Sequence record: OQ708376.1
Reading direction: 5' to 3' (one strand)
Origin: Escherichia phage vB_EcoM_CRJP21
DNA: 64,000 nt
Below are positions 26,164 to 58,268 of this stretch, one piece after another. The notes under the pieces are model-generated. The model saw nothing but the letters and a program-made list of their open reading frames with translations. It had not been told where the DNA came from and did no database searches. Within the stretch, counting starts at the first letter, position 1; each line of letters begins with the position of its first letter. The position numbers and the translations under genes were made by a program.

Positions 26164-26406
26164 ATGAAAGTACTATCTGAATTAGAAATGTATCATAGAT
26201 TTAATAAGTACTATCATTTACTTAAGCCTATACAGAGGATTAAATGTCCATTTGAAGAGAAACAGGTATTAATTTATGAGCATAAGTTATTTGTATCATT
26301 AGGTACGAATGAACAAGAGTATTATTTGAAGTTGTACTTGATTACATTAATAGATTTAATTCACTATAAAACCAAACAAGCTAATAAAGAGAAATATGAA
26401 AACTAA
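26164..26406 (+). CDS. family-1 small protein
   Basis: core LGTNEQEYYL; N-term MKVLSELEMY. Confidence 0.55.
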   Translation: MKVLSELEMYHRFNKYYHLLKPIQRIKCPFEEKQVLIYEHKLFVSLGTNEQEYYLKLYLITLIDLIHYKTKQANKEKYEN

Positions 26407-26740
26407 TATACAACTCAAGGTATATAAATCATTTGAACATACATATATCAAAAGTAGTCTATGTAGAGATGTAATGGATTACAAGGGTAAGCCATTCACA
26501 ATTACCTATGATTCTTATGTTAGTGATTTATATATATCATTTGTTAATTACGAAAATAAAATATACAAGCACGTTGATATTAAAGATTTAAGTACTTTAT
26601 CACCAGAGGAATACTTTCAGGAATCATTAGTATGGGATTTAGAGTTCCCTATGCCATTAGTACATAAGATGATAGTACTAATGAAAGAATCTAAACAGGA
26701 GCCTAATAGTGGTTATGAAGAACACACAGTTGAGTATTAA
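26396..26740 (+). CDS. family-2 protein (EEYFQxSLV-core family)
   Basis: core EEYFQESLVWD. Confidence 0.6.
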   Translation: MKTNIQLKVYKSFEHTYIKSSLCRDVMDYKGKPFTITYDSYVSDLYISFVNYENKIYKHVDIKDLSTLSPEEYFQESLVWDLEFPMPLVHKMIVLMKESKQEPNSGYEEHTVEY

Positions 26741-27110
26741 AAGTACTGATAATACTAAGAGTTATACAAGCTCAAGTACTGTGACAATCGAAGTGAATTC
26801 TATTAATGCTGGTAATGCAGTAGATAAGTTCTTTATTGCTCAAGGGTACAGGAAAGATATTCATCAATACTGTTCAGTATATGGGGAGTACAATTCTACT
26901 GAAGATATAATTTATTGGTCAACACATCAAGATTATATAACTAAAATTGGCGTTCCAGATGTTAGTACTTTATCTGAAGAAGAATACTTTCAGTACAGCT
27001 TAGTACATGATGTACCTATACCTTTAGGGTTAATCAAGGGTATGCAGGAAGAGGTTCATAAGCTTAAATCCATGAGTTCAGGTACTTTCATTAGAACAGT
27101 GCAATACTAG
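26709..27110 (+). CDS. family-2 protein
   Basis: core EEYFQYSLVHD. Confidence 0.6.
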   Translation: MVMKNTQLSIKSTDNTKSYTSSSTVTIEVNSINAGNAVDKFFIAQGYRKDIHQYCSVYGEYNSTEDIIYWSTHQDYITKIGVPDVSTLSEEEYFQYSLVHDVPIPLGLIKGMQEEVHKLKSMSSGTFIRTVQY

Positions 27111-27111
27111 C

Positions 27112-27140
27112 TTGACAGTACTTTTTATTACTGATATAGT
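27112..27140 (+). promoter_or_regulatory. internal sigma70-like promoter (TTGACA, 17 bp, TATAGT)
   Basis: consensus boxes. Confidence 0.55.
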
Positions 27141-27169
27141 GCACCAACGTTAATCATAGGGTACAGATT

Positions 27170-27415
27170 ATGTTAAAATTTTTAAATTTCCTTATCGTCT
27201 TGTGTATTGTTCTTGGAATTGCACCGTTTGTATTAGCGTATCTGGATTCAGATGAAATGCAGAAGATGAATTGCACAAAGACAGGACAGAGTAGAGAAGA
27301 GACGGTTATGATGCCTGTAACGGTTATTGTGAATAACATACCAATTACGAACATGATTCCTACCCTAACGACAACGTACCAGTACTCTTGTGCAGACGGA
27401 GAGAGGTGGAGATGA
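27170..27415 (+). CDS. small membrane protein (N-terminal TM helix)
   Basis: MLKFLNFLIVLCIVLGIAPFVLAYL hydrophobic N-terminus. Confidence 0.5.
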   Translation: MLKFLNFLIVLCIVLGIAPFVLAYLDSDEMQKMNCTKTGQSREETVMMPVTVIVNNIPITNMIPTLTTTYQYSCADGERWR

Positions 27416-27732
27416 AATTTAATATAGCAAAAACATCGAATGTATGTATATTTGGTTATGCAGATGAGTTAGGTGATATTGACATTCTTTTGTACAAAAA
27501 GGATGGTGTTATGCATTTCAAGTACCAGGATGAAGAGGCAGACAATTATCCTTTACCTAATTTAGTACAAATGCAGGAAGAGGAATTATTCCAGTACAGC
27601 TTAGTATATGACATTGATATTTGCACGATGCCAGTACTAATTAATATTCAAAAAGTGATGCTCGATGTGTTTGATAGGCTAATACAAGGCACACAAGGAA
27701 GAACCATATATGTCAATGTACAAGACAATTAA
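27412..27732 (+). CDS. family-2 protein
   Basis: core EELFQYSLVYD; ATGA coupling, RBS GGAGG. Confidence 0.6.
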   Translation: MKFNIAKTSNVCIFGYADELGDIDILLYKKDGVMHFKYQDEEADNYPLPNLVQMQEEELFQYSLVYDIDICTMPVLINIQKVMLDVFDRLIQGTQGRTIYVNVQDN

Positions 27733-27925
27733 TCAAGAATGGAAGACCCAAAAGTACAGGGAATTCAGTACTAGTTTAACAAAAGATGCATTGAATTTAA
27801 AAAGAACAGAGTTTGATATGTTTATTTTTCTTGGAACACGTTCACAGGAACAATACATTCATTATTATATAAGTTCATTGCGAACGGAGATCGTATACAA
27901 AACACAGGGTATTATAAAAAAGTAA
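27710..27925 (+). CDS. family-1 small protein (outlying copy)
   Basis: core LGTRSQEQYI. Confidence 0.5.
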   Translation: MSMYKTINQEWKTQKYREFSTSLTKDALNLKRTEFDMFIFLGTRSQEQYIHYYISSLRTEIVYKTQGIIKK

Positions 27926-27933
27926 ACCAATAT

Positions 27934-28161
27934 TTGTACGCTACAAAGTACAGGGATTTTTGTTTAAAGGGTGGTGATGAAGATTTTTCTTTGCGATTAT
28001 CAGAATTTAATCTGTTATTTTATCTTGGTACATCGGAACAAGAAGAAATGGCACAGAAATTTATCAAGCACCTTGAACAAAAAATTCATATGCAAATTTT
28101 GATGCTTAAGGTACATAATGAGATAAACAAATATGAACCCAACAATAGTACAGGATCTTAA
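27934..28161 (+). CDS. family-1 small protein (outlying copy, TTG start)
   Basis: core LGTSEQEEMA; no in-frame ATG. Confidence 0.4.
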   Translation: MYATKYRDFCLKGGDEDFSLRLSEFNLLFYLGTSEQEEMAQKFIKHLEQKIHMQILMLKVHNEINKYEPNNSTGS

Positions 28162-28522
28162 ACAAGTAATATTCCTTTTGAATACAAGAAGTGAAATGTA
28201 TACAGAGTTTAAAGAGATTAATGCATTTTATCAGAATTTTGTAATTCAAGAGTTCAGTGATTTAATTACAGATGCATTATTTGAATTATCGGAAAAATAC
28301 AAAGGAACAGAGTTCAGTGTTAAGAATGTATTACGTTCTTTATCAAAGCGTATAATAAAATTAGATCATTTTACATTTGACAATAAAGATTTATTCAGTC
28401 ATAATCCAAGTACAGCTTTATATTTTATTCCTGATTCAGACAAAAATCATCCTATTCATTACGGATGGATTTTGTCGTACATAGTACAAGGAAAGGAGTA
28501 TCCTATTAAATGGAACGATTAG
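28133..28522 (+). CDS. hypothetical protein (129 aa)
   Basis: track ORF; no family motif. Confidence 0.45.
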   Translation: MNPTIVQDLKQVIFLLNTRSEMYTEFKEINAFYQNFVIQEFSDLITDALFELSEKYKGTEFSVKNVLRSLSKRIIKLDHFTFDNKDLFSHNPSTALYFIPDSDKNHPIHYGWILSYIVQGKEYPIKWND

Positions 28523-28670
28523 GGCGATTAGATTATTACACAATTAATACAAATTATTTGTTGCGTAATATAAAATCCGATTACAAAATATGGATAAAGA
28601 ACAGAGATAGTATGTGTTATGAATTTTATTTAGATTATGCCATCAAACGCTTTTTAAGAGAAGAACATTA

Positions 28671-28853
28671 ATGCACACACCGCACAAAAATACAAAAACG
28701 ATAAATGTTTTAAATGATTCTTTATTGGTGAGTATAAATTTATATTATAAAATTCATTTAAATGGTGGTATTGAAAATTTTAGTTATTATTTGAGTGCAA
28801 TATCGCAAGAGCATTTAATATACCAAGATCATTTATTGCACCCGAATCCATAA
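28671..28853 (+). CDS. hypothetical small protein (60 aa)
   Basis: track ORF only. Confidence 0.3.
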   Translation: MHTPHKNTKTINVLNDSLLVSINLYYKIHLNGGIENFSYYLSAISQEHLIYQDHLLHPNP

Positions 28854-28861
28854 GGCAAATT

Positions 28862-29407
28862 ATGAATGATATAGAATTATTAGCACACAAGATTAGTACA
28901 ATAATGCTTATCCTCAATAACAACCATCCTATATCGCAGATAGATGGAATCCTGAGTCAGAGGACAGGTGGTAGTTTATATTTGACATTAACAGAGGTTA
29001 TCGCAAGGAATTACATTGATATTGAAATCGAGAACAGTGATGCATCAGGAAAGGTTGATGTAGGTGCATTAATCAGTTCAAATCCAGTATCAGCATCCCC
29101 ATTGACCAAAGGTGTTAGTACAGGATTCGAAGGGTATTTGTGGTACAATACCAATGATGATTATTTTATATATCAGCATTCCAATACAAATTATGATGAA
29201 GACAAATTTCAGTTCATAGACCCTTATGATGAAGCTGAAGTATTTCAAAAATCATTAATCACAAAACCGCATGAGATGATGTATCTAATGTTATTCAGTA
29301 CAATGCATTTGAATCGATTAATTAAAGGTTTAAAATTTTATATTCAATTGAATTTAGTCCATGTAGTTTATGATTTATTAATGCAAGGATATAGTTATGA
29401 AGTATAA
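28862..29407 (+). CDS. family-2 protein
   Basis: core AEVFQKSLIT. Confidence 0.55.
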   Translation: MNDIELLAHKISTIMLILNNNHPISQIDGILSQRTGGSLYLTLTEVIARNYIDIEIENSDASGKVDVGALISSNPVSASPLTKGVSTGFEGYLWYNTNDDYFIYQHSNTNYDEDKFQFIDPYDEAEVFQKSLITKPHEMMYLMLFSTMHLNRLIKGLKFYIQLNLVHVVYDLLMQGYSYEV

Positions 29408-29708
29408 AATGATGTATACCCCAGATATGATTTATGTTGAATTAGAAGATGATGACGATGGGTGGAATTTGATTTATTCAAGAAGTTCAGGTTGGTACAT
29501 GGCACATTTAAATGATTCGATAGTTACAGATTATTTTGTAGATTTCAATACATTATCCGATGAAGAATTGTTCCAACAGCAATTAGTAATTGACACGGGT
29601 GGTTATGATGTTTTATTATTAAAAAAGATACAGAAAGCTGTTATTGATTTTAAGCCCATGATATGGCAAAGGAAATATTATGACCTCGAAGTACCGTACC
29701 AGCAATGA
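29397..29708 (+). CDS. family-2 protein
   Basis: core EELFQQQLVID. Confidence 0.55.
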   Translation: MKYKMMYTPDMIYVELEDDDDGWNLIYSRSSGWYMAHLNDSIVTDYFVDFNTLSDEELFQQQLVIDTGGYDVLLLKKIQKAVIDFKPMIWQRKYYDLEVPYQQ

Positions 29709-30246
29709 AATTCAGTACACCTACGCTAATGCAATCCTTATGGGACAAAAGTTAGCTTGTATTGTTGCAGCCTTATATAATGCACAGAAAGATTACAAGC
29801 GTCACATCCACAAATGTATTGGTATTATTCCATCGAAGTACAATACATATATTGCGTGCACGAGTCATTTTGATAAACGATTCAATACACCTGATACCCC
29901 AAATGCCAGTAGTGTTATTGGTCTTTTGGATTTCGCACCTGGTGCTGTTATTGGAAAGAATGATTTAGAGTACACATGGTATAATAAAAATGCCCCGTTA
30001 GTAATGGTAAAATATGATACAGAAACGAATAAAACAATAGAGTACAATACATATAAATCAGAGGAAGAATTTTTCCAAGGTTCATTGCTTGTGCCAGTGC
30101 GTTTGTTGTTTTATAATGTCCTTATTAGTACAGTACACAATAGTCCATTACACAAGAATCACAAAATTAATTTCAATTTTTGTGCTTATGCGATTGATGG
30201 TGTGTATGAGTGTTTAATGGAGGTATTGAGTTATGAAGCTGAATAA
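29680..30246 (+). CDS. family-2 protein
   Basis: core EEFFQGSLLV. Confidence 0.55.
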   Translation: MTSKYRTSNEIQYTYANAILMGQKLACIVAALYNAQKDYKRHIHKCIGIIPSKYNTYIACTSHFDKRFNTPDTPNASSVIGLLDFAPGAVIGKNDLEYTWYNKNAPLVMVKYDTETNKTIEYNTYKSEEEFFQGSLLVPVRLLFYNVLISTVHNSPLHKNHKINFNFCAYAIDGVYECLMEVLSYEAE

Positions 30247-30574
30247 TACATTTGATATTAATAAGTTAAGAGAATGGTTTTATAGTATTGAAATTGAAGC
30301 CATCCCGTATCATAGATATGAACAATATAATTTAACCAGTATTGATATCAGTGAGTTGTACGCGTATTATCAAAGTGCATTAGAGATGCATAAGTTATTT
30401 TTGAGTACAGATTTTGTTCTAAATTACAATTTTGAGGAATTTAATAATTATAATTTAGTACAGAAATATGTAGTAGCAAAGTACATGTACAATCAAGGTA
30501 TCAAAGGTTGCCTCGAATTCAATACCGTTCTTATTTTAGTTGAGGTAATTTTATGCACCGCATGTCTGATTTAG
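30233..30574 (+). CDS. hypothetical protein (possibly divergent family-2)
   Basis: degenerate ELYAYYQSALEM. Confidence 0.4.
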   Translation: MKLNNTFDINKLREWFYSIEIEAIPYHRYEQYNLTSIDISELYAYYQSALEMHKLFLSTDFVLNYNFEEFNNYNLVQKYVVAKYMYNQGIKGCLEFNTVLILVEVILCTACLI

Positions 30575-31050
30575 AGTTCAGTTTAGATGCAGCCTTTAAA
30601 TTTGTTCACAAAATAGAAACAATATATCGTACATTATGTGCAATAACATCAGTATCAAAAGAGTTTGATGTTGGTGAAAGGTATCAGGTGTGGAATAATT
30701 CATTTTATAATAAAGAACATTCTGCGACGGCATTTTATATTTTAGCATTTAATCCCAGCAATTGTTACCCAGAGAAGCATGAACGTTATCCAAATGACGA
30801 CATGTGGTTTGAGTACAAAGAAGATGCTGATATGTCGTCAATTGTAGTTCCTGATGATTTTAATGCACAAGATTTAACAGAAGAGTGGTGGTTCCAGCAG
30901 AATTTAGTACATGATGATATTGATTTATTTTTCTATATTGCATTTAAAATGCTTTATCACAACAATATAGTTAAAGAAAGTTTATCGTTTTCATGTCTAT
31001 ATATTGATGATTTGTACAATGAAATTCAAATAAACATGCCTGTATCGTAA
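30553..31050 (+). CDS. family-2 protein
   Basis: core EWWFQQNLVHD. Confidence 0.55.
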   Translation: MHRMSDLEFSLDAAFKFVHKIETIYRTLCAITSVSKEFDVGERYQVWNNSFYNKEHSATAFYILAFNPSNCYPEKHERYPNDDMWFEYKEDADMSSIVVPDDFNAQDLTEEWWFQQNLVHDDIDLFFYIAFKMLYHNNIVKESLSFSCLYIDDLYNEIQINMPVS

Positions 31051-31075
31051 GATATGGGCTTTTTTCGTTTTGGTA

Positions 31076-31104
31076 TTGACAAAGAAGTGCAAAGCTGTTA
31101 TCAT
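31076..31104 (+). promoter_or_regulatory. internal promoter (TTGACA, 17 bp, TATCAT)
   Basis: consensus boxes; RBS AAGGAGA follows. Confidence 0.55.
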
Positions 31105-31132
31105 GTGTAATCATTTTAAAGGAGAACATATA

Positions 31133-31645
31133 GTGAGTTTCATAATCCCAAGTACATACGAAGATGCATCAAGTGCAGTTCATAAGATTCATTATATTTT
31201 TAATTTAATTATTAGATCTGCAAAAATTAAAATGTATGCACCTCTTGTGACAAATAATCGAAATGAAGAAATTTTTATTAGCACAGACAAAATTATTTTT
31301 CCATATTTCAATGAAGATAGATTGTGGTTCATACATTTAGCTGCATTACAAAAATATAAGATGTCAATTCGTAATAATTTGGATATACCGTTATATCATC
31401 CTGATATTGGAGAGGATGAATATTTTCAGTACAGTACAGTACACCGCCATGAAGATATCTTTGTTGCTATGCTTATTGCTAAATTGAATACCGTTGATTT
31501 GGAGCAGTACAAATACAATAATAAATCATGTAAGATCATAATCCCTGCATTCATAGCTCTTTATGATTATGTGGTGCATAACAAAAAAGATGATACATAT
31601 GCTTTCAATGAAGAGTATTTGAATTTTTTTAAGGAGAACATATGA
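31133..31645 (+). CDS. family-2 protein (GTG start)
   Basis: core DEYFQYSTVH; GTG 8 nt after AAGGAGA, same RBS context as next gene. Confidence 0.55.
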   Translation: MSFIIPSTYEDASSAVHKIHYIFNLIIRSAKIKMYAPLVTNNRNEEIFISTDKIIFPYFNEDRLWFIHLAALQKYKMSIRNNLDIPLYHPDIGEDEYFQYSTVHRHEDIFVAMLIAKLNTVDLEQYKYNNKSCKIIIPAFIALYDYVVHNKKDDTYAFNEEYLNFFKENI

Positions 31646-32169
31646 GCAGTGAAGTGCTGAAATCAATGACATTCAATGAAATTGGTACATTTAAAGATAA
31701 GATCATTGATTGCATTGAATACATGATTTGTAGTAATATCGAAAGTATCGAGATATTTAACAAGACAAATCGCTCTTACCATATGATGTACATTGCAAAC
31801 AATAATGGTATCATTCCATTTATTTCGGATAGTACAATATGGTACGCATGTGATACGAAAAAAACCACAATAGGTTTACATTCATTTGAGACACATTATG
31901 ATCTAATTATTCCTGAACATTGTATGCAAGAAGAAGAATATTTTCAAATGCAATGTATACATTCACCATTAGTGTTGTTTAGTTTATATATTATACCTTA
32001 TATCACCAAATGTGTTCATGAGAATAAAGCTCCGTGGAATCATGAATTTGTATCGTTGAAGTTATTGTATAATGTATTAGTAGAATATTATGATTACAGG
32101 CACAATGGTACAATCAGTGATGTATGGGATTTTGAATCGCTAAGGGTGAAAACATACACAGGTGAATGA
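31642..32169 (+). CDS. family-2 protein
   Basis: core EEYFQMQCIH; RBS AAGGAGAACAT. Confidence 0.6.
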   Translation: MSSEVLKSMTFNEIGTFKDKIIDCIEYMICSNIESIEIFNKTNRSYHMMYIANNNGIIPFISDSTIWYACDTKKTTIGLHSFETHYDLIIPEHCMQEEEYFQMQCIHSPLVLFSLYIIPYITKCVHENKAPWNHEFVSLKLLYNVLVEYYDYRHNGTISDVWDFESLRVKTYTGE

Positions 32170-32785
32170 TATGACCAGAATTAAAATGTATGATTTGATG
32201 CAGTACAGTAAAATTGCCATTCCAGTGCTTAATAAAGTGCTGGATGCATTCATTGCCAAATACCCTGAGAATTCAGTGTTATGTATTCCATTTAGTGTTC
32301 CAGATAAAGATGATATATTCCAAGTGAATGTCAGTACACGTGGTATTACATTACAGCAGAAATACATGGATACGGAATATTATGGAATAAAGTTGGATTC
32401 AGTACAGGGTTCAAAATCAGCCTATGATTTTTTTGTTCCTAATAATATAGAGTCATGGGAAACAAACATTTCAAAGAAAGATGAAAATGATGTTCCTATT
32501 AGTGGTGTGTTCAACAATAAAGTTTTTTATTATTACGAAACCGACAAATTCCCTGAAGAGTTATATTACAATTCAGAAATGAATGAAGATGTAGATGCAT
32601 TCATGTTTCAATTATCTTTAGTACATGATATCATTGATGTTCAAGAGTTAAGAGCAGAAATCAATTTAGCTAAAGAGTTATCGGACATGCTGCCACCGTT
32701 TAGTATGCTTTTTTGTGAAGGTGGTTATTTTTCAAAAGAAGTGTTTGAACATTTCGTAGATGTTGTAAAAGGGTTGGATATATAG
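32162..32785 (+). CDS. family-2 protein (alt start 32171)
   Basis: core AFMFQLSLVHD. Confidence 0.55.
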   Translation: MNDMTRIKMYDLMQYSKIAIPVLNKVLDAFIAKYPENSVLCIPFSVPDKDDIFQVNVSTRGITLQQKYMDTEYYGIKLDSVQGSKSAYDFFVPNNIESWETNISKKDENDVPISGVFNNKVFYYYETDKFPEELYYNSEMNEDVDAFMFQLSLVHDIIDVQELRAEINLAKELSDMLPPFSMLFCEGGYFSKEVFEHFVDVVKGLDI

Positions 32786-32786
32786 T

Positions 32787-32981
32787 ATGCTTACAGTTGA
32801 TGTTAAACAAAAATACCGTAAGTTTGATTGGTTCACCGACAGTTTCCAGCTTGAATTATTACATTTGAATATCTGTGAAACATTATGTGCAGAAACACAA
32901 GATGAATTTGATGATAGAGTGATGAACATAGTAATGCTTTCTTGCTTTAAACATTTTGGTTATTTTTTCGGACAGAATTGA
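32787..32981 (+). CDS. short family-2-like protein (64 aa)
   Basis: DSFQLELLH. Confidence 0.4.
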   Translation: MLTVDVKQKYRKFDWFTDSFQLELLHLNICETLCAETQDEFDDRVMNIVMLSCFKHFGYFFGQN

Positions 32982-32989
32982 GGTAAAAA

Positions 32990-33505
32990 ATGCATCAACA
33001 CAAGCATCATTCATATGATTTTGCAATTAACATTATGAAGTTTATTCGAGCGTTGGAGGATGGGAAGCTTAGTCATAAGTACAGGAAAGAGGGTAACAAT
33101 TGGTTCAGAAATGATTCCGAGTTCAGTTGTCATAAAATCGTGTATAGTAATCAGTACAGTGCCAATTACCTACAAGATGTAGTGATGTGTTTTGAATACG
33201 TGTTGCAGTTCAGGGGTTCAATCCAAGATGAGTTGATGGAGAACATGTACATCCGATACCTTCCAATGCTCAAAGATGAAAATGTATTATTAAATTCAAT
33301 ATACCAACGAGTTCGTGAAATTGAGTGCAGGGATATATTAGATACAGAAGAATCGTATTTCCAGCAATCCCTGATTTATGCACCTGATTTATTACAGGTA
33401 CATAATTTGTTTAATACATTACGTCAAAACATCAGTACAGACATATTTTTGTCATTATCGGATTATGATACATTTGTCAAAGATTTAGAGGAAATAGGTT
33501 TATGA
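32990..33505 (+). CDS. family-2 protein
   Basis: core ESYFQQSLIY. Confidence 0.6.
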   Translation: MHQHKHHSYDFAINIMKFIRALEDGKLSHKYRKEGNNWFRNDSEFSCHKIVYSNQYSANYLQDVVMCFEYVLQFRGSIQDELMENMYIRYLPMLKDENVLLNSIYQRVREIECRDILDTEESYFQQSLIYAPDLLQVHNLFNTLRQNISTDIFLSLSDYDTFVKDLEEIGL

Positions 33506-33846
33506 GTCGATTTTCGGTTTATATAGTAAACGTCAGTAAAGATGGTAGTTTAATTGAATTTGATGTAGTTGATAACAATGATAATTCATATGGTATTAAG
33601 GTACAGGACAATGATGTACAGTTCAGTACAAGGACAAATTTTGAGAATCCAGTCCAAGTTCCGAATTTCATAGAAGATGAAGCTGCACGATTCCAATACG
33701 AAACGGCATATGACAATGTACATATGCATATTATTATGCAAACGAGTTTAGTTCAATTAGTTCCTTTGTTCAGACAAAATATATATGTACATGAAGTGTC
33801 GATTAATGGCATTCAAAGTTCCGTTTTGTTCGGTACAAATATGTAA
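33502..33846 (+). CDS. family-2 protein (variant core)
   Basis: core AARFQYETAYD. Confidence 0.5.
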   Translation: MSRFSVYIVNVSKDGSLIEFDVVDNNDNSYGIKVQDNDVQFSTRTNFENPVQVPNFIEDEAARFQYETAYDNVHMHIIMQTSLVQLVPLFRQNIYVHEVSINGIQSSVLFGTNM

Positions 33847-33856
33847 GGAAAGTACA

Positions 33857-34399
33857 ATGAGTTTATTAGATACATTAGAAAAAGACAGAAGTGCAATTAA
33901 GCGTTTAAAAGAGCAAGTACAAAAGATTGTATACAACGTTGATAAGTTTGAAGTCCCAGGAAGATTTGGTGATATTTCCCATACGGAGATCAAATCCCTT
34001 AAGTCAGATTTGTTGATTAAAAATAAAAATGGGTTGATTTTAGTTTTGAGTTCAGATATGATGGGGGCAACACATAGTTATAATGCAGTATCGGTGCGTT
34101 CAGAGTGTGAAGGTATATATCTATCACAGGGTTTCAATAGCGAGACACAGGTTTGTTTTTGTGATGCAGTACATGACCCTATGAAGTTCACGAGAAGTGA
34201 AGCCCAAGCGTTATTAGAGCTATCAGACGAGAGTTTGTTTCAGTACAGTACAATGTATGACAATGATAAGCTTCGTTGTATGTACGCTGTAAAGCATTAT
34301 ACACAGGAGTTCTCTGGATTTGCATACCTTTTAGTTAGAACCAATACCATATATATTGATATGTTAGAAGATTACATCGATAAAGTTGTTAATGTATGA
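33857..34399 (+). CDS. family-2 protein
   Basis: core ESLFQYSTMYD; RBS AAGGA. Confidence 0.55.
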   Translation: MSLLDTLEKDRSAIKRLKEQVQKIVYNVDKFEVPGRFGDISHTEIKSLKSDLLIKNKNGLILVLSSDMMGATHSYNAVSVRSECEGIYLSQGFNSETQVCFCDAVHDPMKFTRSEAQALLELSDESLFQYSTMYDNDKLRCMYAVKHYTQEFSGFAYLLVRTNTIYIDMLEDYIDKVVNV

Positions 34400-34411
34400 T
34401 TTTGTGATGGG

Positions 34412-34585
34412 ATGATGCTAATGAAAGAGTTATTTGAAGATCAGTTCAATACATATGTGGATAATATTCTTTATTCCAGTCGTGCCAGTCAACGAGGAAA
34501 TCGTGCTTACAATATTGATTACCTATTGGTGGTGCTGAGTTCACAGTACACCAATGCGGTACAAAGGGTTTATTATGAAAAGTGA
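34412..34585 (+). CDS. hypothetical small protein (57 aa, not in track)
   Basis: hand-translated ORF. Confidence 0.3.
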   Translation: MMLMKELFEDQFNTYVDNILYSSRASQRGNRAYNIDYLLVVLSSQYTNAVQRVYYEK

Positions 34586-37328: not shown

Positions 37329-37329
37329 A

Positions 37330-50081: not shown

Positions 50082-50646
50082 TTTTATTAAAAGTGTAGTA
50101 CACCCTATGCTTAGTATTATGAAAAAAATACAGAATCTACCGGAAGATAACGATTACAAGTTTAATCGTTTTGATTCAGATGTGTTTTGTATTGAAATTG
50201 AAATTAATAACAATCGCAATTTACATTTAAAATTCAAAGAATCTTCGAGTCCGTACTACAACTTTGATATGAATTTTAAAATAGATACTGACATTGAAGA
50301 AAACATAATATCAAATCATACTAGCAAAAATGGTTTTATGCATAGAACTACTATGTACAATAATAAAAATAGTATTATATCTAAATGGAATCAACAATTC
50401 ACTAAAATTTGTGAAATTGAATATAATGATTTTGGTGAAGAACATTACTTTCAGTTAAGTACAATTCATGAACTTCCACCATATGATTATGTTAAAACAT
50501 GGTTTGATATTCATAATATAATTGATGATGCAATCAAACTTCCATTTGGTGTGTCAATATCATATACTGCTCCTAAAACATTTGTTTTTACTGAAGATAT
50601 GATTATGAAAAAGATATGGGCAATCATCCCACTTATGATGGATTAA
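50065..50646 (+). CDS. family-2 protein
   Basis: core EHYFQLSTIHE. Confidence 0.55.
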   Translation: MKITNDFIKSVVHPMLSIMKKIQNLPEDNDYKFNRFDSDVFCIEIEINNNRNLHLKFKESSSPYYNFDMNFKIDTDIEENIISNHTSKNGFMHRTTMYNNKNSIISKWNQQFTKICEIEYNDFGEEHYFQLSTIHELPPYDYVKTWFDIHNIIDDAIKLPFGVSISYTAPKTFVFTEDMIMKKIWAIIPLMMD

Positions 50647-50660
50647 ATTTGTACCAGGGG

Positions 50661-50689
50661 TTGACTCTGGTTTTTTTGTATGATACATT
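50661..50689 (+). promoter_or_regulatory. candidate internal promoter (TTGACT + weak -10)
   Basis: follows short hairpin and T-run; RBS AAGGAG before 50708. Confidence 0.35.
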
Positions 50690-50707
50690 GTTCTCAAGGA
50701 GAATTTT

Positions 50708-51259
50708 ATGAACTACAATCATGATCTTTTTACATTATGTGCATCCAAATGTGTTGAAGGATGGGCAGATAAAATCAATACCATAATTCATCGATATCTC
50801 GTCTTTAGTTCCCGTGCACGAAGTGAGGGGGCTATGGATTTCAAATATACACTATCTATTGATGGTGTAACTATCCATGCAGACGAAGAACGTCTGAACA
50901 TTAATTTGTATGATTCCTGTGTATTTGCTATTCACCAAAAGATGGGGAAAGGATGGGGTTGTAATAACATTAACTCCAAAGCTATCTTTTGGGTTGGTCA
51001 CCATCAGACAGTACTTGATCCTTCAATCAAATCTAATCTTTTATCCGATAATATGGTTTATGATTTATTGTACTCCGAAGAACAACATTTTCAGTTAAGT
51101 ACATTGCATGTTCTGGCACAGTACGAGGATTGTTACAAAACATTAGAACTATGCCATTCCCTTGAACTTAAAGATAAATTAATACAAGTTTACCCTTCAT
51201 TCTTTCATGAAGAAGTCCAAAGTACACTAGATCATATTTTATATGGATACGATAAATGA
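50708..51259 (+). CDS. family-2 protein
   Basis: core EQHFQLSTLH. Confidence 0.6.
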   Translation: MNYNHDLFTLCASKCVEGWADKINTIIHRYLVFSSRARSEGAMDFKYTLSIDGVTIHADEERLNINLYDSCVFAIHQKMGKGWGCNNINSKAIFWVGHHQTVLDPSIKSNLLSDNMVYDLLYSEEQHFQLSTLHVLAQYEDCYKTLELCHSLELKDKLIQVYPSFFHEEVQSTLDHILYGYDK

Positions 51260-51858
51260 GAAAAAGTTATCAAGAAGCTATTGACTTAATTCGTGAAGTT
51301 ATCAAGGTGGCTCCTGCTGCTATTGAGTTCAAGAAGTCCATATACAAGAAGTATGGGTCAATGTCGAGTATGTGCTTTCAAAAGAAACGTAGAGCATTCA
51401 CTACCCAGTACTGGAATGATTCTATCATCCTGAGCAATGAGACTCAGCGTATTTTAACACTAGAATCTGAACCTAATGAGTACGGGGAAGGAAACATTTG
51501 TGTACCTGATTATGATGAAATTAACTTCAACTGCGGTGATTTTGAAACAACATTATTACTTCATGAGGGTTATCCAGAAGGTGATGTATTAGCTGAATAC
51601 AATCCAAAAACTAAAATTCTCAAAAGAGGAATTCAGTTCACTATTAATAACAAAGATGATGTTGAAGCAGCACTGATGCAACTGAGTACAAGTGAACCTA
51701 TCACTATTAGTGTAGAAGAGTTATGGGGAATTATTTCAGTACTCAATGAGTGCTACAAAGTAAAATCATTGCGTAAACACAGCATTATATTACATACCAA
51801 TATGGCAAATATAAAATGTAAGCACATTCAAGAAATGGTGGTTCCAGATGGACTTTAA
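51256..51858 (+). CDS. family-2 protein (variant)
   Basis: core AALMQLSTSE. Confidence 0.5.
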   Translation: MRKSYQEAIDLIREVIKVAPAAIEFKKSIYKKYGSMSSMCFQKKRRAFTTQYWNDSIILSNETQRILTLESEPNEYGEGNICVPDYDEINFNCGDFETTLLLHEGYPEGDVLAEYNPKTKILKRGIQFTINNKDDVEAALMQLSTSEPITISVEELWGIISVLNECYKVKSLRKHSIILHTNMANIKCKHIQEMVVPDGL

Positions 51859-52432
51859 AGAAATTGAAAGTAAATTAAAGTACTTCAAAGATATCAAACT
51901 TCTTTGGAAAAAGTATAAAGTTGATTACAATTTCAGTGATGATGAGACAATAAAATACATTGAGATTAATATCAAAATCAAGTTCAAGAATAATAATTAT
52001 GGTGAAGTAACCTTAAATCATACTGGTATATCACTCAAGGACTATGATGGTACAACACTCGCATATTTTGACTTCACACCAGAACCAGGTGAAACACTAC
52101 TTAGTGAGATAAATTCCTATGACATGGAAGTGTTCGGCGGGAATCCGTTACTGTTCCGACTTTCTGAAGAGTGGAGTGAAGAGTACTACACTTACAAAGA
52201 TGGTGTAGTACTTGACATTCATGGAGAAGTTGTGAATGACTTGGAAGAACGTTTGTTCCAAGAATTGTGTGTTTCAAATACTTCATATGCATACAATCAT
52301 ATCCTTGACATGTTTGATTTATATAGTAAAATAGATGCTGAAATGAAGGCACATGGTATTCATTACCTTACAATTAACGACTATGCTCAACTCGAAACCG
52401 CTGTGAAAGCATTGACTAAAGTACTGAAATAG
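51848..52432 (+). CDS. family-2 protein (variant)
   Basis: core ERLFQELCVS. Confidence 0.5.
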   Translation: MDFKEIESKLKYFKDIKLLWKKYKVDYNFSDDETIKYIEINIKIKFKNNNYGEVTLNHTGISLKDYDGTTLAYFDFTPEPGETLLSEINSYDMEVFGGNPLLFRLSEEWSEEYYTYKDGVVLDIHGEVVNDLEERLFQELCVSNTSYAYNHILDMFDLYSKIDAEMKAHGIHYLTINDYAQLETAVKALTKVLK

Positions 52433-52441
52433 GAATGAAAT

Positions 52442-52855
52442 ATGAAACTGTATCATGCGAGTACTGTAAAAATTGATAACTTTTATATCCCGTATGGTGG
52501 TCTTCATATGGGAGGTAAACACAGTGCTTTGGAAGCTGCATTACGCAAGCTGAGAAGCCCACTGAACGTAGTAGACGCATGTACAGTATACTTGCATACC
52601 TTAGAAGTTGATGTTGATAACGTGCTTCTGTGTGAAGATTTAGGCAGTGATGATGAGTGGCGTTCACTTATTGAGAATTGCACTGCTCAAGGTTATGATG
52701 CTGTTCAGTACAAAAATGATTACGAGCCAGACAATGTTCCTAGCTTTATGATTTGGGATGCATCTAAAGTTCGCATCATTGAAGTTGATGCTATGCATAT
52801 GGATGAAGCTGAAATGATTATCGAAGATTTTCTTGATGAATATGAAGGTGTATAA
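52442..52855 (+). CDS. hypothetical protein with possible ADP-ribosyltransferase-like motif
   Basis: N-terminal KLYHASTV...GGLHMG recalls the H-containing strand of H-Y-E ART folds; speculative. Confidence 0.3.
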   Translation: MKLYHASTVKIDNFYIPYGGLHMGGKHSALEAALRKLRSPLNVVDACTVYLHTLEVDVDNVLLCEDLGSDDEWRSLIENCTAQGYDAVQYKNDYEPDNVPSFMIWDASKVRIIEVDAMHMDEAEMIIEDFLDEYEGV

Positions 52856-53391
52856 TGACTGACCCGATGGTAGCACTGGCACGTACTAAGTTACTATTAA
52901 AGATTGGTGAGATTTTTACGGTTCTTCTGTCCAATAATATTGATATTACTGAGCTAGATATTAAGCAACCGTGGGAAGTGACTATGTTCTCGGCGTTCCA
53001 CCGATTGTCATATAAAGGTGAAAGTGTTCTTGATTTTAACCCTAAAGCAAAATTCATAGATTATGCTGCGTTGTACAGAGAGTTGCACCGAAATATTTAT
53101 TCCGGTTGTATAACCAATAACTTCAAAGAAATTAAAGTTCAAACTGCATCACATGAGTTCAATGATTTACTTTATCCAGAATTTAATCTAACGGAAGAAT
53201 TACTCTTTCAGTACTCGTTAATTCTCACAAATCTCGAAACGCTAGAGTACTACAAAGAGTTAGTAGATATTTTTATGAATACACGACTTTCAAAAGATAT
53301 TGTGATATTCTGGTATACAGAGCATGTTACGGAGGAATTGCTTACTGAATTTCTTCTAAATATGACAGCTATAAAGGAGAAGTTATGTTAG
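52855..53391 (+). CDS. family-2 protein
   Basis: core ELLFQYSLIL. Confidence 0.55.
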   Translation: MTDPMVALARTKLLLKIGEIFTVLLSNNIDITELDIKQPWEVTMFSAFHRLSYKGESVLDFNPKAKFIDYAALYRELHRNIYSGCITNNFKEIKVQTASHEFNDLLYPEFNLTEELLFQYSLILTNLETLEYYKELVDIFMNTRLSKDIVIFWYTEHVTEELLTEFLLNMTAIKEKLC

Positions 53392-53858
53392 ATATTTTAG
53401 GAAACATCGATACTGCAAATTATTTTATCCAGGACGCACTGTTCAATACAGTTCAACAAGGATTAGAAGTTCGTCATAACGTTTACCAAGGTGATGGTTA
53501 TTTCGTTGATATTGTTGAGGCACGAAAGAATACGTTTAATGTTAACATTACAACACTGGGTAGACAGAACATTGCACGAATTTTAGTAAGTAAAGATGAA
53601 ATTGTATTGAGATACAGTGCTAAGTTTATGTTGACTTATAAGAAAAAAACTGATATGTTCAGTACTAATTTATTTGATGAGCCATTTGACCTTGAAGATA
53701 TTGAAGCTACTTTCTTTACTCAAAGTACTATGGTAAAATACACTGATGTTCAATTTTCTGCTGATGTAATGTCGGAAACATTACAAATGATCAAGGTATT
53801 ATTTTATGCATTTGAGCAATTTAGAGAAGAAAGAAACAAGGTTAACAACCACAGATGA
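53385..53858 (+). CDS. family-2 protein (variant)
   Basis: core ATFFTQSTMV. Confidence 0.5.
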   Translation: MLDILGNIDTANYFIQDALFNTVQQGLEVRHNVYQGDGYFVDIVEARKNTFNVNITTLGRQNIARILVSKDEIVLRYSAKFMLTYKKKTDMFSTNLFDEPFDLEDIEATFFTQSTMVKYTDVQFSADVMSETLQMIKVLFYAFEQFREERNKVNNHR

Positions 53859-54219
53859 ACTAATAGAGGCGATCACTAAGGAGTCAAAATACCACAAAGG
53901 GATTCGTCTATATTTTATAGATATTGGTTCAATGGAAGGCATATACATTTATGGTTCACAATCTTTATCTTATGATGTAATGCCAAAAAAACATGTAAAA
54001 ATCTTTTTAGGTTCAGATAAAAAAACTTTCTTGACAATTAATGATAAAAACGTTATTATGAATTCGTTGGGTCATGATAAGGTGGAAATTGATCTAAACA
54101 CACTGGAGGATATTGATTTTTTTCAATACGAGTGTTTAGGTGTTGACTTACATGGCATTAGTAGCGATATGATAAAATCATTAATCAAATATTTCGAAGG
54201 TGTTCATAAATGTATCTAA
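53806..54219 (+). CDS. family-2 protein (variant; start uncertain)
   Basis: core IDFFQYECLG. Confidence 0.45.
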   Translation: MHLSNLEKKETRLTTTDELIEAITKESKYHKGIRLYFIDIGSMEGIYIYGSQSLSYDVMPKKHVKIFLGSDKKTFLTINDKNVIMNSLGHDKVEIDLNTLEDIDFFQYECLGVDLHGISSDMIKSLIKYFEGVHKCI

Positions 54220-54707
54220 CTAAATCAATGAAAAATTCATTTGATAAAATCAAGAGTTGTCTTGATGGGGAAAATATTACAAGTGTTACACAAACTGCTG
54301 ACCAAATTCAAAGCAGTTCAAGTGATTGTACTGTTATTTTAGGTTTACATAGTCTACGTTTATCAATAGTAAATAATATTGACAACACTGCTATTGTAAT
54401 CACACCATGCCATATTCAAAATGAGAATGGTGTATATCTTCATCACATGGGAACAGTATTTCATATTTTCAATACAAACGAAAACATTGTTAAGGAATAC
54501 AAATCTCTTAATATTGATTCAGGTGAATTATTTCAAATGAGTACTTTGTACTCATGTAATTTTACAGATACTTCATGTATTTTGCCATTTTTCTTGGAAA
54601 TTATTAAGAAAATGGAAAATTTAAAACGTGAATACAATAAAGAAATGGTTCCTGAAGCTATATTAAATATTACTAATGCTATAGAGAAGTATAATGCAGT
54701 GACTTAA
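54210..54707 (+). CDS. family-2 protein
   Basis: core GELFQMSTLY. Confidence 0.55.
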   Translation: MYLTKSMKNSFDKIKSCLDGENITSVTQTADQIQSSSSDCTVILGLHSLRLSIVNNIDNTAIVITPCHIQNENGVYLHHMGTVFHIFNTNENIVKEYKSLNIDSGELFQMSTLYSCNFTDTSCILPFFLEIIKKMENLKREYNKEMVPEAILNITNAIEKYNAVT

Positions 54708-56549: not shown

Positions 56550-56556
56550 TGAAAAT

Positions 56557-56604
56557 AATGTGAACATATTAGATTCTTGTGATATAATGTTCACATCTTT
56601 TTTT
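56557..56604 (+). promoter_or_regulatory. hairpin (10-bp arms ATGTGAACAT / ATGTTCACAT) with -10-like TGATATAAT in loop, then T-run
   Basis: direct read; terminator and/or operator. Confidence 0.4.
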
Positions 56605-56620
56605 GATAACGGAGATATAG

Positions 56621-57007
56621 ATGAATACAAGTTCAATCCTAAAAGCAATTGGTGGTGTTTTACTCATTGAAGTAAAAGGTGAACCAAAGCTATGCTGTTT
56701 AGAAGATATGAAGAATACAAAACACTTCAGTACTGGTCAGATTTTCAATGCCATTCGTATTCTAAATGACAAATCCATTGCTGATTATGGAAAAGTTTGG
56801 CCTGTATATCAAAATGCTGATGGTGATATCAGTACTGATTGGAAAACAATTGAGGCGGTACGACAAAGTTGTGAGAGTGATTGGGACTTCATTGTTGAAG
56901 TTTGTGATCAACTACAAGAAGATGTTCCAGAAATTGTTGAACGAAAAGAAGTTCTAGCACGACTTGAAAAATTCCGTCACGGAACACTACAGTATGACAC
57001 AATCTAA
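56621..57007 (+). CDS. hypothetical protein (128 aa)
   Basis: track ORF; RBS GGAGA. Confidence 0.55.
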   Translation: MNTSSILKAIGGVLLIEVKGEPKLCCLEDMKNTKHFSTGQIFNAIRILNDKSIADYGKVWPVYQNADGDISTDWKTIEAVRQSCESDWDFIVEVCDQLQEDVPEIVERKEVLARLEKFRHGTLQYDTI

Positions 57008-57056
57008 TCTGCTTATTAAAAATATCTAATTAACATTATATAAAAGGAATTTAAAA

Positions 57057-57362
57057 ATGGAAGACAATGGAATGAAATTTGATATGTTTGAAGGTGTACC
57101 AGAGTTCGATTTCAACAAACTTGAAGAAGGTGAGGAATCAGAACTAGTTAGTGTTACACTTAAAGCAGATTCTAAAAAGAAATATTCATCATCAGTACGT
57201 TCACGTTCACAAGAAGAATACGAATCATTTATTGAAAGTATTCATTATGAAACATTCCATCACGCAGATGGAACTCCATATGAAGTACGTGTAACAGTAC
57301 TGAAGCCTGAAGTAAATCCAATGGAAAATCTACGTCCTGTTTACTGCTGGGCAAGTCACTAA
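57057..57362 (+). CDS. hypothetical protein (101 aa)
   Basis: track ORF; RBS AAGGAA. Confidence 0.55.
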   Translation: MEDNGMKFDMFEGVPEFDFNKLEEGEESELVSVTLKADSKKKYSSSVRSRSQEEYESFIESIHYETFHHADGTPYEVRVTVLKPEVNPMENLRPVYCWASH

Positions 57363-57370
57363 TAAACCAA

Positions 57371-57402
57371 AGGACGGGATTTGTTATCTCGTCCTTTTTT
57401 TG
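57371..57402 (+). terminator. rho-independent terminator
   Basis: AGGACGGGAT-ttgtt-ATCTCGTCCT + TTTTTTT. Confidence 0.7.
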
Positions 57403-57413
57403 TCTGGAGATGT

Positions 57414-58268
57414 ATGAAACTTTATCTAATCGTTGACTACAATAAGGATTATGCTGGTAACTTCACCGAAGATTCGGATGGATATTGCACATCGACTAAT
57501 GTCAATGTACGTATCAGTAATGCTCATGAACATGAATCTTGTAAAAATCTAAAAGATTTTATCACATACCGAGCATTTGAAAAGAACTTCTGCCGCAGTA
57601 GATATTCGAAGTTTGAGTACCCGTTAATTGATGTTCCTGATGATTTAATGTTCCAGTTAATGCTAACTGGAGTTCAAGATTATGATTACATAGCATATAA
57701 TCATATTACTAAGAAAATTTATATTGGTACATCATCACATGACACTTCTATGTATGCATCATGCCCAGATGATCGAATGAATGATAGAAAATCATACTAT
57801 AGTGGATCAGTTGGTTTAAATGATTCATTAAATGAAAATTTATTCTTTGAGTATGTTTATGATTACCATCATGAGAAAAAAGAACGTGAAGATTACTGTA
57901 TAGCAATTGATAGTACTAATGGGTATGAAGACGTGAAAGAAGCACTTATGCCGTACATTATTGAAAAGTACTACAAAGATTTTCAGTACTGTAGTAATTT
58001 TCTAATCAGAAATTCTATTATAATCGGTCGCCAATCTAGTGCATACTCTCAGTACTATAATGATTCACCAGTAGCATCGGCAAATGAAATGTGTGATATT
58101 TTACAAATTCCACGTGAAGATATGGCATTCATTTTTACATCTTTTATTGAAGATGATGAGTTGTATATTAAAAATAAACACCGTTTCATGCCAAGCAAGA
58201 TTGAGGTTATTCGAAGTTTTAGTGTTGATATACTAACAAATTTCACAGAAAAAACCGAATATAACTGA
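57414..58268 (+). CDS. large divergent family-2-like protein (284 aa)
   Basis: core DLMFQLMLTG; track start inside terminator, so restarted at internal ATG. Confidence 0.5.
   Translation: MKLYLIVDYNKDYAGNFTEDSDGYCTSTNVNVRISNAHEHESCKNLKDFITYRAFEKNFCRSRYSKFEYPLIDVPDDLMFQLMLTGVQDYDYIAYNHITKKIYIGTSSHDTSMYASCPDDRMNDRKSYYSGSVGLNDSLNENLFFEYVYDYHHEKKEREDYCIAIDSTNGYEDVKEALMPYIIEKYYKDFQYCSNFLIRNSIIIGRQSSAYSQYYNDSPVASANEMCDILQIPREDMAFIFTSFIEDDELYIKNKHRFMPSKIEVIRSFSVDILTNFTEKTEYN

Follow-up and report, generated by a model that had tools for sequence, protein, structure and literature searches.

A tandem array of paralogous FQ-motif genes beside the presumed terminal repeat of Asteriusvirus jumbo coliphages

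We analyzed a stretch of 64,000 nucleotides from Escherichia phage vB_EcoM_CRJP21 (record OQ708376.1), called the window below. Its + strand carries, at 26396..54707, a tandem array of genes for one protein family, here named the FQ family, with the signature (T/S)-E-E-x-Φ-F-Q-x-S-(T/L)-(V/I). The array consists of 43 robust, one probable and up to four possible members, together with a few unrelated embedded genes. The family, its signature, its predicted fold and its scale appear to be new within the databases and literature that we searched. Judging from the sequences, the best reading is that the array encodes an early, cytoplasmic and diversified host-interaction repertoire on a conserved scaffold, although we hold this with slightly less than even confidence.

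The initial annotation of this DNA had proposed one paralogous family of about 54 members, ending at 58,268 and including almost every + strand open reading frame (ORF). We searched the ORFs with a regular expression of the core (an acidic residue, 1-3 residues, an aromatic or aliphatic residue, F-Q, any residue, S/Q/N/A, L/T/V/C and L/V/I/M). It matched 39 of the 74 + strand ORFs starting in 26,396-58,268 and none of the 89 elsewhere in the window, compared with a mean of 0.03 matches (maximum 1) in 1000 within-protein shuffles. Each of the three + frames contributed matches (15/14/10), and one match lay on the - strand; therefore the array is not a DNA tandem repeat. Further, a motif-seeded hidden Markov model (HMM), iterated on full-length proteins, was stable at 40 window members (E<1e-3). 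F-Q was invariant in all 40, at a mean column identity of 13%. When the HMM was enriched with relatives from two other phages, it recovered 43 window members and gained the ORFs starting at 33502, 40220 and 49572.

The leftover ORFs of similar size were compared with the family by profile-profile alignment (hhalign). One probable member was identified at 45734-46276 (90%), and weak candidates started at 51848 (45%), 53806 (23%), 49147 (9%) and 51256 (6%). Every ORF from 54,750 onwards and all control ORFs of the first 26 kb scored below 3%, and the ORFs at 54750-58268, all below 2%, were rejected as members. From the HMM and hhalign memberships we therefore place the array at 26,396-54,707, with 43-48 members. 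All 43 robust members lie on the + strand, head to tail, within 28.3 kb. The array has 55 + strand ORFs with a length of 100 amino acids (aa) or more; 43 of these are robust members, which cover 72% of its bases. Thus the proposed family was real, but its size, its right end and its share of the ORFs had been overestimated.

Conservation was assessed over 100 sequences from three genomes. The motif Phe was conserved in 99% and the Gln in 96%, while the remainder of the protein was 8-13% identical; information content resided mainly in the motif and in a small number of aromatic residues of the β-strands. The motif is followed by 34-69 aa, close to the 30-60 noted initially. The motif Phe was encoded by TTT 23 times and by TTC 20 times, the Gln by CAG 25 times and by CAA 17 times, and the conserved Ser by both the AGY and the TCN codon families. 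This free synonymous variation means that the constraint is on the protein and that the divergence is old. On the same grounds we rejected the idea that the motif reflects a repeat or a recombination signal at the level of DNA. Among orthologues, identity was 76% in the part before the motif, compared with 84% in the motif segment (p = 2e-4) and 80% in the C-terminal part (p = 0.013), in agreement with the variable N-terminal halves described earlier. The subfamilies noted in the initial annotation were recovered as well. The five genes at 36834-39158 share 34-57% identity, and the trio with LFQ(E/A)(S/A)LVFDK (ORFs starting at 35158, 36112 and 36465) shares 39-42%; this block and the LFQESLVFDK trio are the most recent duplicates.

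The members are 103-207 aa long. We observed a hydrophobic segment in none of them, and membrane or secreted proteins were rejected for this reason. The median isoelectric point (pI) was 4.9 (range 4.05-8.9) and the median net charge was -9; 25 of 43 members had a pI below 5. The family had been called acidic, which holds for these medians but not for three members with a pI above 7. Acidity, together with the position of the genes in a putatively early region, would suit proteins that imitate DNA or another substrate and so inhibit restriction or further defences acting on nucleic acids, with each protein adapted to a different enzyme; such mimics or decoys had also been suggested. The three basic members speak against this idea, as does the wide range of pI. 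The combination of features expected of Ocr- or ArdA-like proteins (uniformly strong acidity, a DNA-like charge surface and structural similarity to mimics) was not found. Since the fold showed no resemblance to that of such proteins and acidity was not universal in the family, specific evidence for mimics or decoys is lacking, and we regard a mimic role as improbable.

We obtained AlphaFold2 models of one long and one short member. The long form (43561-44037) was modelled with a mean predicted local distance difference test (pLDDT) score of 73 and a predicted template modelling (pTM) score of 0.69. The model shows an N-terminal helix (residues 7-26), a β-meander (31-54), a variable stretch of low confidence (59-91) and the motif helix (104-111, pLDDT >90). 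Behind the motif come another helix (116-131), one strand (139-142) and a helix at the C-terminus. The short form (36112; pLDDT 81, pTM 0.78) consists of a six-stranded antiparallel sheet and two helices, 65-74 (the motif) and 83-99; decile means at its motif helix were 96 and 80. The models predict a common small α+β two-layer fold, in which an antiparallel β-sheet platform carries two helices on one face and the motif forms the first helix. Long forms are predicted to add an N-terminal helix and variable insertions.

Proteases of the tobacco etch virus (TEV) NIa and 3C type recognize sites such as ENLYFQ/S, or E-x-x-Y-x-Q-(S/G). The FQ motif resembles this pattern and stands at a fixed distance from the C-terminus, so one may ask if it is a processing site from which the C-terminal 34-69 residues are freed. 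Such sites should be extended and exposed, whereas both models confidently place the motif in a well-packed α-helix inside the fold. In addition, the P1' position is highly variable, and prohead proteases of the T4 type cut after Glu. A TEV- or 3C-like cleavage site was therefore rejected, and we consider processing at the motif very improbable.

Known domains were not recognized in the family. There was no match below E=0.06 in Pfam (ten members) or below E=0.03 in NCBIfam (nine members), and the best profile match among PDB sequences had E=0.53, as the initial annotation had anticipated in calling the core uncharacterised. The window members each matched a PHROGs family with E from 1e-56 to 1e-137 (phrog_9317, 12674, 13866, 19795, 30243, 15629, 38467, 34636, 34017 and 28680). 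These contain the same proteins, but as separate families of unknown function with only weak cross-hits (E from 1e-3 to 1e-13). PHROGs does not recognise the superfamily, the motif or the array organisation found here.

The window represents the left terminus of a jumbo coliphage genome of the genus Asteriusvirus (PBECO4/121Q-like). Megablast of window positions 36-46 kb returned about 35 phage records with 97-98% identity and 92-100% query coverage, all from Asteriusvirus jumbo coliphages of ~350 kb (BF17, UB, PBECO4, phAPEC6, G17, Sharanji, 121Q). One array protein was 100% identical in SP27, UB and ELP-22. The window is collinear with records that begin at the physical left end, and its position 16,841 aligns with position 16,745 of fEgEco12. 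Direct terminal repeats of ~21 kb are reported for Asteriusvirus (PMC13070987, PMC11895373): 20,993 bp in fEgEco12, confirmed by restriction digests (PMC13070987), and 20,668 bp in Sharanji (PMC11895373). Because of this collinearity and these reports, window positions 1 to ~20 kb are presumed to be the left direct terminal repeat. The array starts ~6 kb after the ~20-kb repeat and is co-oriented with it.

We also detected the family in other jumbo phages. A six-frame scan of ECO103 4-12-1 (OR844650.1; 350 of 352 kb assembled from loci L003-L009) identified 54 members with the window-only profile and ~71 with the enriched profile, and the motif was present in all on inspection. About 45 belonged to the main array, about 20 to a second co-oriented cluster at 9-49 kb of the record (L003 9000-49100, - strand) and a few were singletons. 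Outlying members were found by the enriched-profile scan at L007 12664-13062, L008 2513-3774, and L009 24677-25333 and 45682-46341. With ~26 more divergent members outside the main array, the family is therefore genome-wide (~71 copies) and extends beyond the window. In Klebsiella phage Muenster (Alcyoneusvirus), 27-31 members directly follow the annotated terminal repeat of 20,030 bp, and Klebsiella phage fENko-Kae01 has 19-26 directly after a repeat of 19,736 bp. The intergenomic similarity of fENko-Kae01 to fEgEco12 is ~29% (PMC13070987). Thus a location just after the terminal repeat is common to three jumbo-phage lineages, and a position in or next to the terminal redundancy is that of early host-takeover clusters.

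A metagenomic Logan contig (ERR13998736; 18.4 kb, 35% guanine plus cytosine) held 27 matches among ~39 called genes, in tandem (L013 2594-18101), which were only 25-45% identical to those of ECO103 4-12-1, Muenster and fENko-Kae01. Its short forms come first and its long forms after; it belongs to a distantly related phage. An exhaustive HMMER scan of 1.84 billion protein representatives gave only 141 at E<=1e-3, all of 65-210 aa. In ten sampled clusters the named members all came from Asteriusvirus, a RaK2-like Klebsiella phage or a ~350-kb 'E. coli' contig, and all were annotated as hypothetical. When 5.8 billion proteins were searched by word index, all matches were of Asteriusvirus type. 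There were no matches across genera by tblastn with single members and none at all with the HMM consensus, the latter probably due to low-complexity masking. By these searches the array is a maintained hallmark of RaK2-like jumbo phages, not seen elsewhere. It is an old, lineage-specific feature, anciently expanded and maintained in at least four lineages.

Selection was estimated by the Nei-Gojobori method as the ratio of nonsynonymous to synonymous divergence (dN/dS) between window 23000-64000 and the syntenic region of Escherichia virus TH47, another Asteriusvirus species. The array was collinear and nearly one-to-one with that of TH47, at 24-100% protein identity. The dN/dS was below 1 in every family comparison with measurable synonymous divergence (dS), with a median of 0.25 over 39 orthologue pairs. 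Neighbouring non-family genes had a median of 0.22, which did not differ from the family (p = 0.12). The FQ genes are real, protein-coding and under purifying selection. We rejected gene-wide positive selection, as the ratio was the same as in the neighbours; the diversification proposed in the initial annotation does not appear as diversifying selection on whole genes.

The dS changed from 0.02 to >2 from gene to gene along the array, therefore the region is a recombination mosaic. At 31070-32169 two positions appear to be held by different paralogues in the TH47 comparison (24-41% identity). Blocks at 34-57% identity adjoin members without a BLASTP-detectable paralogue. The best hits of the 43 members fell within the window for 22, in Muenster for 15 and in fENko-Kae01 for 2, while 4 had none; there were five reciprocal cross-genus pairs. 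The best hits thus show a mix of lineage-specific duplication and old orthology, as birth-and-death evolution would give. Together with mutual homology and head-to-tail clustering on one strand, it gives the array the features of a viral tandem multigene family.

Such a mosaic of very different divergence levels might also arise if the genes were dispensable filler, produced by recurrent tandem duplication and tolerated through headful-packaging slack, with little individual function. Gene content does vary among close relatives, and some Salmonella isolates cover only 84-94% of a 10-kb stretch. We nevertheless find filler quite improbable: dN/dS is 0.25, with each measurable gene below 1, the motif was kept long enough to saturate synonymous sites and to switch Ser codon families, and arrays are maintained in at least four lineages.

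The genes are densely packed, as had been noted from the start. We counted 51 overlapping junctions among 66 in the array (14 at -4, 6 at -1) and only five intergenic gaps of at least 40 bp, at least four of which have a σ70-like promoter and/or a terminator-like hairpin. A σ70-like promoter lies at 27112..27140 (TTGACA-17-TATAGT with TG) in a gap of 59 bp. At 31038..31104, in a gap of 19 bp, a terminator-like hairpin (31038-31059) is followed by a promoter (31076-31104, TTGACA-17-TATCAT). A perfect σ70 consensus promoter is present at 43498..43527 (TTGACA-18-TATAAT with TG; 59-bp gap). At 47346..47407, in a gap of 75 bp, a terminator hairpin (47346-47365) precedes a promoter (47379-47407, TTTACA-17-TATACT with TG), and a gap of 61 bp contains a terminator-like hairpin with TTGACT at 50653..50671. 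All of these are on the + strand. The overlaps and the five gaps support a polycistronic layout with few internal promoters. Of the roughly five promoters and one terminator described initially, a handful of promoters stands, whereas we found three terminator-like sites.

Across the array, counts of promoter-like sites were not above those in shuffles (94 vs 115; 129 vs 122). The presumed terminal repeat has dozens of perfect TTGACA-16/17-TATAAT promoters, one ahead of nearly each small gene, and window 1-20 kb contained 106 promoter-like sites compared with 67 ± 7 in shuffles. The T4-type late-promoter consensus TATAAATA did not occur on the + strand of the whole window.

One gene embedded in the array, at 52442..52855 (+ strand, 137 aa), lacks the FQ motif. 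By position and length it is the counterpart of Muenster gene 123, annotated as a putative ADP-ribosyltransferase (HHpred 4GV2_A, 99.8%), which is likewise embedded in the Muenster array. The gene had no match in Pfam, NCBIfam or PDB sequences, and its dN/dS of 0.10 was below that of the surrounding FQ-family genes.

We tentatively favour an early host-interaction repertoire because the array lies close to a promoter-dense repeat and is co-oriented with it, has putative σ70-type promoters in its gaps, includes the ADP-ribosyltransferase-like gene, encodes small soluble proteins and shows rapid paralogue turnover. Birth-and-death evolution, the missing T4-type late-promoter consensus and the absence from the phAPEC6 virion proteome (see below) fit this reading too. 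A library of host-directed effectors had been put forward in the initial annotation and is plausible. Early transcription of the array genes by host RNA polymerase with σ70 is probable, in a small number of long polycistrons with translational coupling. The conserved core may provide a stable scaffold, in line with the information content of the motif, the faster divergence of the N-terminal parts and the confidently modelled motif helix, and through its diverged surfaces each paralogue could engage or inactivate its own target in the host or in a competitor. As a set, the paralogues may form a host-takeover or anti-defence repertoire.

The orthologue of the member at 43561-44037 is gp425c of phage phAPEC6. 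The proteome of purified phAPEC6 virions comprises 62 proteins and no gene product between gp348 and gp548 (PMC7247149). Array proteins are therefore not detectable virion components, and we rejected the idea that they are virion proteins. In fENko-Kae01, the homologue ENKO_077 was flagged as detected by liquid chromatography with tandem mass spectrometry; rather than pure virions, the material analysed was the >300-kDa fraction of ultrafiltered lysate (PMC11218385). This detection is protein-level evidence of expression of one homologue.

Recovery of ENKO_077 in this >300-kDa fraction would also fit proteins that serve the phage itself, in replication or transcription factories, in DNA handling or as assembly chaperones, perhaps as hetero-oligomers. 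Such a role is favoured by the high, stable copy number, by a syntenic position that the lineages have in common and by purifying selection on the genes. However, no member was found in the purified phAPEC6 virion, and the divergence and turnover of paralogues are extreme (24-100% identity between two Asteriusvirus species), which is unusual for core machinery. The surrounding region has σ70-like promoters, as host-takeover regions do. We consider a phage-internal role rather improbable.

Several points weigh against the host-interaction repertoire. The >300-kDa fraction could mean that ENKO_077 belongs to a large assembly. The promoter calls are consensus sequence matches only. As the dN/dS of the family is no different from that of its neighbours, there is no arms-race signature at whole-gene resolution. 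Finally, at ~15-20% pairwise identity an invariant polar Gln seems to exceed what a fold usually needs, and it hints at a shared partner or activity and not purely at diversified binding.

This last point would be explained if the family were a library of adaptors. The helix with E-E-x-Φ-F-Q-x-S might dock every paralogue on the same partner, for instance RNA polymerase, a protease or some further machine of host or phage, and the variable parts might recruit different substrates, similarly to F-box or BTB adaptors; ~70 diversified bodies would then aim one hub at different host or defence targets. The contrast between the motif (F 99%, Q 96%) and the remaining protein (8-13% identity) is what such docking would leave, the conservation is at the protein level only, and a ClpP-like gene is annotated 3' of the array in fENko-Kae01. 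On the other hand, F-Q lies within a confidently predicted, sheet-packed helix in both models, and a role in the fold core fits equally well. We regard docking on one hub as possible but unlikely.

The individual members are described below by position on the + strand, length and core; E-values are those of the enriched profile (window plus relatives from two other phages) unless stated. Positions refer to longest-ORF starts, and real starts are perhaps a few codons downstream. The array opens with members at 26396..26740 (114 aa, PEEYFQESLVW; E=3.2e-11), 26709..27110 (133 aa, EEEYFQYSLVH; E=1e-11) and 27388..27732 (114 aa, EEELFQYSLVY; E=1.9e-11). After two embedded genes of a second small family with a shared LGT..Q motif (27710-27925 and 27934-28161), it continues at 28862..29407 (181 aa, EAEVFQKSLIT; E=2.3e-8; phrog_19795), 29397..29708 (103 aa, DEELFQQQLVI; E=1.4e-8), 29680..30246 (188 aa, EEEFFQGSLLV; E=2.1e-10) and 30553..31050 (165 aa, EEWWFQQNLVH; E=9.4e-14). 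Next are the members at 31070..31645 (191 aa, EDEYFQYSTVH; E=1.2e-8), 31642..32169 (175 aa, EEEYFQMQCIH; E=1.2e-12), 32162..32785 (207 aa, DAFMFQLSLVH; E=4.4e-5, or 8.7e-22 by the window-only profile) and 32990..33505 (171 aa, EESYFQQSLIY; E=1.1e-14). A divergent member at 33502..33846 (114 aa, EAARFQYETAY; E=1.5e-7, enriched profile only) is followed by one at 33785..34399 (204 aa, DESLFQYSTMY; E=8.7e-12).

The short-form subfamily appears at 35158..35583 (141 aa, DAALFQEALVF; E=6.6e-10), with 42% identity to the modelled short form at 36112..36468 (118 aa, TAELFQESLVF; E=2.5e-10). Around the latter stand 35741..36112 (123 aa, EEEFFQESTVW; E=1.3e-8) and 36465..36824 (119 aa, DGELFQAALVF; E=9.8e-8). 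The five-gene block comprises 36834..37328 (164 aa, EEYYFQQSTVY; E=3.3e-18; 57% identity to 38240), 37330..37800 (156 aa, EEYYFQQNTIY; E=1.1e-15), 37797..38240 (147 aa, EEYYFQQSLIF; E=7e-17), 38240..38728 (162 aa, EEYYFQNSTLY; E=1.1e-15) and 38706..39158 (150 aa, EEYYFQNSTVY; E=1.3e-19). It is followed by 39155..39469 (104 aa, ESFIFQESLVW; E=2.5e-5, or 1.4e-12 by the window-only profile), 39774..40223 (149 aa, EEGYFQGSTVY; E=3.9e-16) and the divergent member 40220..40756 (178 aa, DEQCFQLSCTD; E=4.1e-9, enriched profile only). Two further LGT..Q genes are embedded at 40734-40952 and 40930-41121.

The middle of the array contains 41111..41671 (186 aa, EENIFQNSVLH; E=1.9e-11), 42270..42632 (120 aa, EDELFQESLVW; E=6.5e-13), 42622..42957 (111 aa, EGELFQESLVF; E=4.8e-9), 42947..43501 (184 aa, QEYYFQLSLLF; E=3.9e-17) and the modelled long form 43561..44037 (158 aa, EEEFFQYSTVY; E=3.8e-15), the orthologue of gp425c. 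Then come 44034..44519 (161 aa, EEMYFQGSCIH; E=5.3e-14), 44509..44871 (120 aa, EEELFQQSTIS; E=5.3e-11), 44855..45268 (137 aa, PDELFQYSLVL; E=1.2e-7) and 45256..45750 (164 aa, EESYFQNSLIY; E=6.7e-14). The probable divergent member 45734..46276 (180 aa) has a degenerate motif, with E=1.5e-6 in hhalign against the family profile. Members follow at 46273..46836 (187 aa, ESAMFQLSLIH; E=1.8e-10), 46781..47347 (188 aa, DEVLFQLSTIC; E=5.4e-15), 47998..48582 (194 aa, DAFIFQKSLLD; E=1.7e-6) and 48569..49147 (192 aa, EEELFQMSTVI; E=1.6e-9).

Possible divergent members are interspersed in the last part. The first, 49147..49575 (142 aa, LALQYQVLYN; weak), precedes the divergent member 49572..50081 (169 aa, EEIEFQNNTLS; E=3.9e-6, enriched profile only) and the members 50065..50646 (193 aa, EEHYFQLSTIH; E=1.8e-11) and 50708..51259 (183 aa, EEQHFQLSTLH; E=2.1e-8). 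The next two are 51256..51858 (200 aa, AALMQLSTSE; weak) and 51848..52432 (194 aa, ERLFQELCVS). Downstream of the embedded ADP-ribosyltransferase-like gene, the array ends with the member 52855..53391 (178 aa, EELLFQYSLIL; E=3.9e-10), the possible divergent member 53806..54219 (137 aa, DIDFFQYECL) and the last member, 54210..54707 (165 aa, SGELFQMSTLY; E=5e-7).

The second tandem paralogue family comprises 32 small ORFs of 52-96 aa with the C-terminal motif (L/F)(L/I)GTNYQE-x-YV-x2-(Y/W)I-x2-L-x3-I-x-K. Twenty-seven contiguous genes at 20220-26406 occupy the whole interval from the terminal repeat to the FQ array, four copies are those inside the FQ array and one is located at 12809-12982. A promoter (TTGACT-16-TATTAT, 20192-20219) lies immediately before the first gene of this family. 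It closes a non-coding stretch of ~500 bp (19723-20219), which contains AAAGGGAT-type elements and lies where the terminal repeat presumably ends on its inner side.

The layout of the terminal repeat resembles an immediate-early region driven by host RNA polymerase. A 28-nucleotide hairpin, AAAGGGATTGACTCCGGTCAGTCCCTTT, followed by GCTATTATAT, is repeated there at 13140-13167, 16410-16437 and 18668-18695, with a variant at 9113-9140. Its stem has a -35-like TTGACT, a -10-like TATTAT comes after the stem, and the whole looks like a combined terminator/promoter cassette; the hairpin inside the array at 50653-50671 is of similar design. In relatives (Turkey3, Turkey5, fEgEco12 and ph0011) a serine/threonine protein kinase is annotated in this part of the repeat. 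Its position here, ~15757-16398, is a guess from annotation under megablast matches to window 16000-24000, with no specific ORF assigned. A putative protein kinase is annotated inside the terminal repeat of fENko-Kae01 as well. The genes just 3' of the FQ array (54750-61731) are far more constrained (dN/dS 0.03-0.18). Neither kinship with the array family nor a Pfam match was found for them; examples are 55391-56239 (282 aa) and 57381-58268 (295 aa).

The FQ family is not described in the literature on CBB, RaK2, phAPEC6, Sharanji, fEgEco12 and fENko-Kae01, nor in two jumbo-phage reviews; in the literature on related phages, paralogues are mentioned only generically. The family makes up about 12% of the genes in these jumbo phages, assuming ~590 genes per genome, and phages that carry it are considered for therapy against E. 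coli, Klebsiella and Salmonella. If the array is a host-takeover or anti-defence repertoire, it would offer a ready library of binders or inhibitors of bacterial targets of ~100-200 residues, a handle on the host range of these phages and a counterpart, in prokaryotes, of the multigene families near the genome ends of poxviruses and African swine fever virus (ASFV). If instead the paralogues dock on one hub, no bacteriophage would have a larger gene family dedicated to host manipulation, and this repertoire would be a main reason why RaK2-like jumbo phages have ~10% of their genes in one fold. Whatever the function, dozens of proteins per genome that are annotated as 'hypothetical' can now be studied as one family, which is open to test and has a sharp signature and a predicted fold.

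The closest known case in a phage is the zinc-ribbon expansion of ~35 copies in Bacillus jumbo phage G, which a comparison of 224 jumbo phages termed unprecedented (Iyer et al. 2021, PMC7824862). There too, one small protein family of unknown or merely predicted function is massively amplified in a single jumbo-phage genome. The zinc ribbon has an unrelated fold and a predicted DNA-binding or transcription-factor role. The FQ family has 43 members in one array and ~71 per genome, and, unlike the phage G expansion, it occurs in several lineages at a conserved position beside the terminal repeat.

The host-takeover module of SPO1, the pre-early region of T5 and the immediate-early ORFs of T4 are clusters of mostly unrelated small genes with demonstrated expression timing. 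Like them, the FQ array consists of densely packed small genes without known function close to the terminal repeat; the clusters have strong promoters of host σ70 type, and the array has putative ones by consensus match. It differs in having more than 40 paralogues of one fold instead of unrelated genes, and its early timing is inferred. Tandem multigene families near the termini of large viruses are an already known phenomenon. The MGF110, MGF360 and MGF505 multigene families of ASFV and the ankyrin/PRANC and Bcl-2-like families of poxviruses have experimentally supported roles in host range and immune evasion. Like the FQ array, they consist of tandem diverged paralogues near genome termini, evolve by birth and death and differ in copy number between strains. 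They belong to eukaryotic viruses, have unrelated folds and show no homology to the FQ family, but their role in host range and immune evasion is the model that we propose for the FQ array.

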